Sequence record: AF039874.1
DNA: 866 nt
Source: a phage
Strand: one strand, 5' to 3'
The notes beneath the pieces were generated by a model. That model searched no databases, had not been told where the DNA came from, and saw nothing but the letters and a program-made list of their open reading frames with translations. Both the position numbers and the translations under genes were made by a program. This document shows positions 1 through 866 of this stretch, piece after piece (the first letter of the stretch is position 1; every line of letters starts with the position of its first letter).

Positions 1-32
1 CTTCATGCCTGCAGGTCGACTCTAGAGGATCC
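1..32. other. Cloning-vector polylinker (pUC/M13mp-type multiple cloning site); not biological insert
   Basis: Directly visible restriction sites in canonical order: 5-10 is GCATGC minus one base (read has CATGCC, so a G is missing at the read start), CTGCAG (PstI) 9-14, GTCGAC (SalI) 15-20, TCTAGA (XbaI) 21-26, GGATCC (BamHI) 27-32. This matches the known pUC18/19 polylinker string aagcttgcatgcctgcaggtcgactctagaggatcc. Insert begins at the GATC of the BamHI site, consistent with a Sau3AI/BamHI-type junction. Confidence 0.92.
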
Positions 33-304
33 TTCATTACCACTAATACAGAATGTCCTTTAACCTTAATAAAGGTAGGATTAGTATTGTGGAAGTTAAT
101 GTATTGCTGGGTTAATTTAAATGCTTCTTGCCAAAGTTCTAGATTAAGAGGAACTTCACCATCTGCTTTCTTCCAGCCTTTCCTTTGCCAAGAGAACATC
201 CAGCTTTCCATACCATTTTTGCAATAAGCAGAATCAGTATAGATAACAATTGGGTCTATTATCTTTTTTAACTGACCAACGTAGAGCTGGGACAGCTTTA
301 GAAC
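28..304 (-). CDS. rnhA: Ribonuclease H, type 1 (RNase HI / RNH1 family): partial catalytic domain, C-terminal portion only. Truncated at the clone boundary, N-terminal half not identifiable.
   Basis: Minus-strand frame with codons starting at positions congruent to 1 mod 3 (e.g. 304-302, 235-233, 55-53) translates 304->50 as VLKLSQLYVGQLKKIIDPIVIYTDSAYCKNGMESWMFSWQRKGWKKADGEVPLNLELWQEAFKLTQQYINFHNTNPTFIKVKGHS. After a 1-nt frame slip near 47-49 it continues ISGNEG into the BamHI site. Family hallmarks present: the YTDS motif (Asp codon 235-233, the position of E. coli RNase HI Asp70 as I recall it), the W..W.(K/R)GWK.AD...V.N..LWQ block (cf. E. coli [26 protein letters not shown], recalled from memory), and VKGHSG..GNE before the final catalytic Asp, which would lie beyond the clone end. 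The symbol rnhA assumes a bacterial source; it would be RNH1 if eukaryotic. Frame is preceded by TAA at 307-305 and has no plausible start codon. Confidence 0.8.
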
Positions 305-463
305 TTATTGCAGTAAAAGATTTACGCCATTCAGTATAATCATGACCATTCATGCTCTTAGCGAGATTGAATGTTGAGTCCTGATTACAAGGTACAGAAA
401 CTACCGAAACTCCGTAAAGTTCTAAACCTTTAATATAAATATATCAGTAGCTTCATCCCACCC

Positions 464-866
464 NGCACCAAGGCAGCGGAATCCGATNCTAAAAGTTTTC
501 ATTACACCGTTTTTAATTAGTGAAAAAANACCCGGGTCAGAACTTTCANAGNTCNCACATCCGATTTCGAGACCCATTTCAGTAGGGTTAGGNTCAANAC
601 NCTTACCGATTGGCNACNATGATTCNTGCCCGAAAAGNAAAANCGGGTTTTCAGGTANTTAGTNANGNGCATTNANCGTTTTCCACNCANAANCAGGGAT
701 TACTCNCCNGCGCGNTNTTTTCAATTGGGGTACCGAACCCCGGGTTTTAAAAAACTTCCTTGGGTNCCCCCCAACAGATTTATTTTACNCCNCCAANTGA
801 NNGGGGGGGATTTAACTNTTACANCCNAANACCNCTGGNGCATTTTTANCCCCCAGAACAGTNGGG
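464..866. other. Low-quality read tail (ambiguous base calls); sequence here is unreliable
   Basis: First N at 464, N density rises steadily, with homopolymer runs (ccccccc 766-772, ggggggg 803-809) typical of a decaying Sanger trace. No reading frame survives here. Confidence 0.9.
727..866. other. Possible re-entry into vector (polylinker KpnI side and lacZ-alpha region), garbled by low quality
   Basis: ggtaccga at 729-736 resembles polylinker ggtaccgagctc. gttttaaaaaac (743-754) and tgggtncccccc (761-772) resemble vector cgttttacaacg and tgggaaaaccc. ccnctggng (831-839) and cccccagaacagtnggg (850-866) resemble ccagctggcg and cccttcccaacagttgcg of pUC lacZ-alpha, as recalled. Order is collinear but lengths do not match (read is shorter), so this is tentative. 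Confidence 0.3.

Follow-up and report, generated by a model that had tools for sequence, protein, structure and literature searches.

The window, by which we mean the whole 866-nucleotide stretch of DNA analysed here, is in all likelihood (probability about 0.95) a raw single-pass Sanger read that runs from vector into the insert of a shotgun clone, made from bacteriophage T5 DNA in a plasmid or M13 vector. This insert is chimeric, with an internal fragment of the T5 gene for RNase H (rnh) on the vector side and a fragment from the T5 head genes behind it. The following features were assigned, with coordinates in the window, strand where one applies, and identity.

1 to 31, no strand: polylinker of the pUC18/19 or M13mp18/19 type (SphI-PstI-SalI-XbaI-BamHI), ending ...GGATC (...CATGCCTGCAGGTCGACTCTAGAGGATC)
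32 to 286, minus strand: internal fragment of T5 rnh (T5.091, RNase H, 158 aa), T5 NC_005859 46468-46722, whole codons 57-140 (LRWSVKKDNRPIVIYTDS...VKGHSGISGNE)
48 to 49, no strand: C missing relative to T5 (T5 ...AATACCAG, read ...AATACAG), the difference lying at window 49 / T5 46485
250 to 252, no strand: extra G in the global alignment (GGG versus GG in T5), the extra base lying at window 252
285 to 288, no strand: AGCT (AluI) site at the chimeric junction, the rnh fragment ending ...AG (286) and the protease fragment starting CT... (287)
287 to 843, minus strand: T5 head maturation (prohead) protease gene T5.150 (pb11), codons 1-189 of 210, T5 103067-103634, start codon at about 841-843
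846 to 866, minus strand: stop codon and last codons of T5.151 (Hoc-like head decoration protein, pb10; annotated at T5 103638-104132), in the unreadable tail of the read

The polylinker start, the miscalls from about position 410 and the N's from 464 together identify the window as a raw single-pass Sanger read. Positions 4-32 match the pUC18/19 polylinker at 29 of 29 bases, and the same 29 bases were found at 100% identity (29/29) in 31 plasmid records with vector remnants; comparison of positions 1-31 with the T5 reference gave no match. The SphI site in the vector part lacks one G (CTTGCATGCC reads cttcatgcc). At the insert the vector ends as GGATC/CT (the slash marks the boundary), where the usual blunt cloning into SmaI would give GGATCCCC/CT. 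The vector may have been opened at a BamHI site that was then filled in, or else at SmaI, in which case compression in the first 50 bases, which are poor, would have cost the read three C's. Global alignment with T5 showed no errors at 287-386, and seven differences plus one N at 387-486, four of them a C for a T and one a single-base deletion. When errors were counted per 100 nucleotides, each bin after 486 contained 8-14 N's, the last bin having only 80 bases. Miscalls start at 412 and N's at 464; quality collapses after about 410. Between 412 and 468, four of the six base-call differences (one N excluded) are C where T5 has T (at 412, 427, 462 and 468), a pattern that looks like a systematic base-calling bias with fading signal and not like real variation.

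The segment behind the vector was traced to T5 rnh by nucleotide comparison. In a blastn search of 50,697 phage records, window 32-288 aligned with T5 rnh at 99.2% identity (NC_005859/AY543070 46468-46724; also AY692264), and the next T5-like phages reached at most 95.7% over the RNase H segment. Two single-base indels were the only differences between window 32-286 and T5 in a global alignment; with both repaired, 255 of 255 bases are identical to T5 46468-46722, with no mismatches, on the same strand and in the same frame as rnh/rnhA (YP_006919; AAU05228). Three T5 records, independent of one another, annotate the matched feature as rnh or RNase H ('rnh: Rnase H'). A protein search with the un-repaired query returned the 'RNaseH' of Escherichia phage ECOP18 (90%) and of Salmonella phage NR01 (89%) as the closest proteins. 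All close protein relatives were RNases H of T5-like phages, the nearest named non-phage protein coming from a Psychrobacillus MAG at 48% identity. A search of 5,426 complete E. coli genomes with window 28-304 (blastn, 11-base words) gave no match, which excludes host DNA. Positions 32-286 are a piece of the known rnh gene of the known phage T5. The preliminary description had expected nothing novel here, and rightly so, but its attribution of the segment to a housekeeping gene of an AT-rich genome falls with the T5 identity.

Set against the intact T5 gene, the window holds 84 of 158 codons, with vector on one side, a T5.150 fragment on the other, two indels within, and an AluI cut at both ends. 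These codons form an internal 53% of the gene (codons 57-140 of 158) that stops short of the last catalytic Asp, and not the C-terminal 55-60% of the domain that had been anticipated. The interval 28-304 originally given for the domain does enclose it but is slightly too wide: 28-31 is vector, 287-304 belongs to another gene, and the RNase H DNA is confined to 32-286.

One minus-strand frame of the window as written reads ...IVIYTDSAYCKNGMESWMFSWQRKGWKKADGEVPLNLELWQEAFKLTQQYINFHNTNPTFIKVKGHS..., with YTDS, WxxSWQRKGWKKAD, LWQ and VKGHS in this order. These four motifs had been reported in the right order and do lie in one frame; a continuous VKGHSG-GNE, reported with them, is not found in one frame as written, because a C is missing after position 48. 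The resulting frameshift splits GHS from G-ISGNE: the frame reads VLVVMK after GHS, GNE sits in another frame, and restoring the C after window 48 gives VKGHSGISGNE. The extra G at 252 causes a second frameshift just upstream of IVIYTDS and splits ...RWSVKKDNRP from IVIYTDS...; its removal restores the T5 reading frame exactly. The true residues upstream of IVIYTDS are LRWSVKKDNRP, and the string VGQLKKIIDP found there is unlike RNase H because the extra G puts these residues out of frame. A eukaryotic or ciliate origin (an intron, or TAA/TAG read as Gln) was considered for the stops upstream of YTDS and was ruled out, since the upstream DNA is another T5 locus and the frame break is a 1-nt insertion. 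The N-terminal half of RNase H, with the counterparts of D10 and E48, was sought in the other frames of 287-480 and was absent; the DNA there is the T5.150 protease gene.

Both indels in rnh are most likely sequencing errors; at 48-49, close to where the read begins, the C was most probably dropped in base calling. The extra G at 252 falls within a part of the read that should be good, a region where Sanger calls are normally reliable, and may be a real mutation of the clone. This position is what speaks for both frameshifts being real and the clone carrying an inactivated (pseudogene) allele of rnh. We regard such an allele as very unlikely. The read is error-prone, having lost a G from the vector SphI site and accumulating miscalls from 412 and then N's; both indels fall in short homopolymer runs (CC to C and GG to GGG), the classic compression or stutter error; and the remainder of the 255 bases agrees with T5 throughout.

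The junction at 286/287 joins T5 46722 to T5 103067, two loci 56 kb apart. Where the T5 rnh locus reads ACGTAGAG/CTTCTAC (GTAGAG/CTTCTAC), the window reads ACGTAGAG/CTGGGAC (GTAGAG/CTGGGAC), and the T5 protease locus reads TTCTTGAG/CTGGGAC (CTTGAG/CTGGGAC). At the left end of the insert, T5 has ACAG/CTTCATT and the window GGATC/CTTCATT, the CT at window 32 following AG in T5. All three fragment ends fall exactly at AG^CT (AluI) in T5. The AGCT density in 6.85 kb of the T5 loci is 0.73%, and the chance of three such coincidences is about 4e-7. With all three ends at AG^CT, the 286/287 junction therefore arose in vitro, when two AluI fragments were ligated; AGCT also occurs uncut within the insert, at window 202, 294 and 449, which indicates a partial digest. 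Cloning through Sau3AI/BamHI sticky ends was also considered, the insert seeming to start with GATC, and was ruled out: T5 has ACAGCTTCATT there, and the insert starts at the AluI CT. The read has all the marks of a chimeric clone: it begins in vector, it joins two genome segments that are not neighbours, and its junctions lie at the site of a single enzyme. On the simplest account, two fragments of an AluI partial digest were joined by blunt-end ligation, to one another as well as to the vector, fragment 1 being 32-286 (255 bp, from the early gene rnh) and fragment 2 being 287-866, from the late head-gene cluster 56 kb away. Neither the vector polylinker nor the chimeric junction had been recognized in the preliminary description.

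The junction between rnh and the protease gene could instead have formed in the genome of a T5 variant, by a true rearrangement or deletion, for example through illegitimate recombination at the 5-nt GAGCT microhomology. Both segments have the same orientation on the T5 map, GAGCT is common to both loci at the junction, and T5 deletion mutants exist, AY692264 being a 113-kb T5 record. We nevertheless hold this origin to be extremely improbable. A 56-kb deletion (46.7 to 103.1 kb) would take out what remains of the early region as well as some of the late region between the two loci; this interval of the T5 map holds replication genes, and its deletion should be lethal. The boundary between vector and insert is likewise an AluI half-site, and AG/CT on both partners, at about 4e-7 for three ends, is the signature of co-ligated restriction fragments. 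Both T5 halves occur at one place in none of the 806 matching phage records, of which 0 cover at least 80% of the query. That the read captured either a real product of illegitimate recombination in a T5 population, such as a defective deletion genome formed at GAGCT, or a genuine frameshifted rnh allele has, taken as a whole, only a very slight chance.

The second fragment of the co-ligated insert is also coding DNA. By blastn, window 284-865 matches T5 103064-103658, and the fragment 287-866 corresponds to T5 103067 to about 103659. The minus-strand start codon of the protease begins at T5 103634, which corresponds to window 843, and the annotated boundary of T5.151, T5 103638, falls at window 846. 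Translation of the 287-843 piece matched PHROG 80 'head maturation protease' (E=1.8e-8) and, weakly, Pfam Peptidase_S78. The RNase H domain had been called the only coding signal in the window, yet 287-843 codes for part of the T5 head maturation protease (its codons 1-189); the protease segment was probably missed owing to the read errors beyond about 410.

The RNase H signal itself is real and far above chance. A profile search with Pfam RNase_H (PF00075) and a protein search had both been proposed as checks on a partial type 1 RNase H domain on the minus strand, and both bear it out. The raw translation matches PF00075 with E=3.5e-9 and 37.4 bits over profile positions 60-123 of 141, and after repair of one frameshift the match rises to E=4.8e-12 and 46.7 bits over positions 60-130 of 141; both scores are above the curated gathering cut-off of 25.8 bits. 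The repaired fragment matched PHROG 531 'Rnase H' with E=1e-35, and the fragment scored 58.9 bits on NCBIfam NF001236, the equivalog model for bacterial ribonuclease HI. The protein search returned RNase H matches, with proteins of T5-like phages closest.

The full-length T5 protein is an RNase HI-like enzyme by fold family and active-site layout. Its best relatives in the PDB are bacterial RNases HI (3h08, E=3.7e-27; E. coli 1rch, 7e-24); the E. coli structures 1rch and 2rn2 and their mutants matched at about 1e-24, and human RNase H1 at 2.5e-14. The T5 protein carries all four catalytic carboxylates, in TDG (D9), MEL (E49), TDS (D73) and NEAVD (D143). Asp9, Glu49, Asp73 and Asp143 align to D10, E48, D70 and D134 of E. 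coli RNase HI (RnhA), and His133 aligns to H124, giving the same DEDD plus His layout; the E. coli sequence used for this alignment is consistent with the PDB alignment. Over the full length, the two proteins are 37% identical. The basic protrusion, or helix C (the W..W.KRGWK.AD block), is present, with WMFSWQRKGWKKAD aligning to its E. coli counterpart and the protrusion itself reading WQRKGWKKAD in T5. T5 RNase H differs from the E. coli enzyme by a 7-residue insertion (NTNPTFI region; ...HNTNPTF...) before the VKGH strand, and its gene is phage-encoded, with no DNA similarity to any of the 5,426 E. coli genomes. The insertion is at T5 RNase H residues of about 120-128, which correspond to window 62-100. 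NF001236 is the closest NCBIfam family, yet the full T5 protein scores 132.1 bits against its cut-off of 160 bits, which makes it RNase HI-like and not a cellular rnhA ortholog by the NCBI criterion. T5 RNase H belongs to a phage lineage of RNase HI that is mildly divergent and present in hundreds of T5-like phages.

The earlier classification of the domain as cellular in type and non-retroviral is upheld by the basic protrusion and by these bacterial relatives. HIV RNase H-domain chains among the matches listed were far weaker (3hyf, 1.9e-10, described as HIV-1 RNase H p15 fused with an engineered E. coli loop; 7xis, 5e-8). Retroviral RNase H (HIV-1 RT p15) has the superfamily fold in common with the T5 protein and only weak sequence matches. 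As is established, HIV RNase H is without the basic protrusion. T5 rnh also differs from its retroviral relatives in having no reverse-transcriptase context, its neighbours being thymidylate synthase and small ORFs.

That the segment comes from a cellular housekeeping RNase HI gene (rnhA/RNH1) of an AT-rich organism has next to no chance of being right: the cellular fold type with the protrusion WQRKGWKKAD, the bacterial RNases HI as best solved relatives, the bacterial 'ribonuclease HI' model as best NCBIfam family and the GC content of 35% would fit it, but it is already refuted by the 100% T5 match (255/255 after indel repair), the close protein relatives are all from T5-like phages with the nearest named non-phage protein at 48%, no match exists in the 5,426 E. 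coli genomes, the score of 132 bits is below the 160-bit rnhA equivalog cut-off, and next to the segment lies a gene for a phage capsid protease.

Of the four catalytic carboxylates of T5 RNase H, the cloned fragment keeps only Asp73 (D70 in E. coli, within YTDS), together with His133 (H124) and the basic protrusion; the AluI fragment (codons 57-140) does not reach Asp9, Glu49 or Asp143. With one carboxylate of four, the fragment cannot encode an active enzyme. It has neither a start nor a stop of its own, and unrelated DNA is fused to it on both sides. The cloned piece of rnh has no function.

RNase HI uses two-metal-ion catalysis to hydrolyse the RNA in RNA:DNA hybrids. By analogy, the complete T5 enzyme would cleave the RNA strand of such hybrids through a two-metal-ion mechanism involving Asp9, Glu49, Asp73 and Asp143, helped by His133. 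The product of T5 rnh is of the RNase HI type (PF00075) and is not a FEN; the phage T4 'RNase H' (also named rnh) and the T5 D15 5' nuclease (flap endonuclease, PIN-like) have an unrelated fold. Removal of Okazaki primers has been proposed as the job of T4 rnh and T5 D15, as it has for T5 rnh. The T5 record annotates rnh with processing of Okazaki-fragment primers and places it in the early region, adjoining thymidylate synthase and dihydrofolate reductase. A role of D15 in Okazaki primer removal has been proposed, and the RNase H homologue rnhA (AAU05228) has been listed in the T5 early replication region (PMC3632103). Homology and annotation suggest that T5 RNase H would work with the D15 flap endonuclease and ligase to remove the primers of Okazaki fragments. 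Among the papers listed, our literature search found T5 RNase H mentioned in passing and no biochemical test or characterization of it. In the T5 reference, separate promoters lie directly upstream and downstream of rnh (T5 45985-47011; at 1018-1092, 1370-1444 and 1970-2044 of the T5 excerpt examined), and the window contains none of that DNA. The gene appears to be a small early transcription unit of its own in T5.

Every T5 genome record already carries an annotation of rnh, as do hundreds of T5-like phages, and the truncation and frameshifts of RNase H seen here warrant no biological reading. The consequence is one of bookkeeping only: the right label for this stretch is vector plus a chimeric bacteriophage T5 shotgun insert, with no cellular gene fragment in it.
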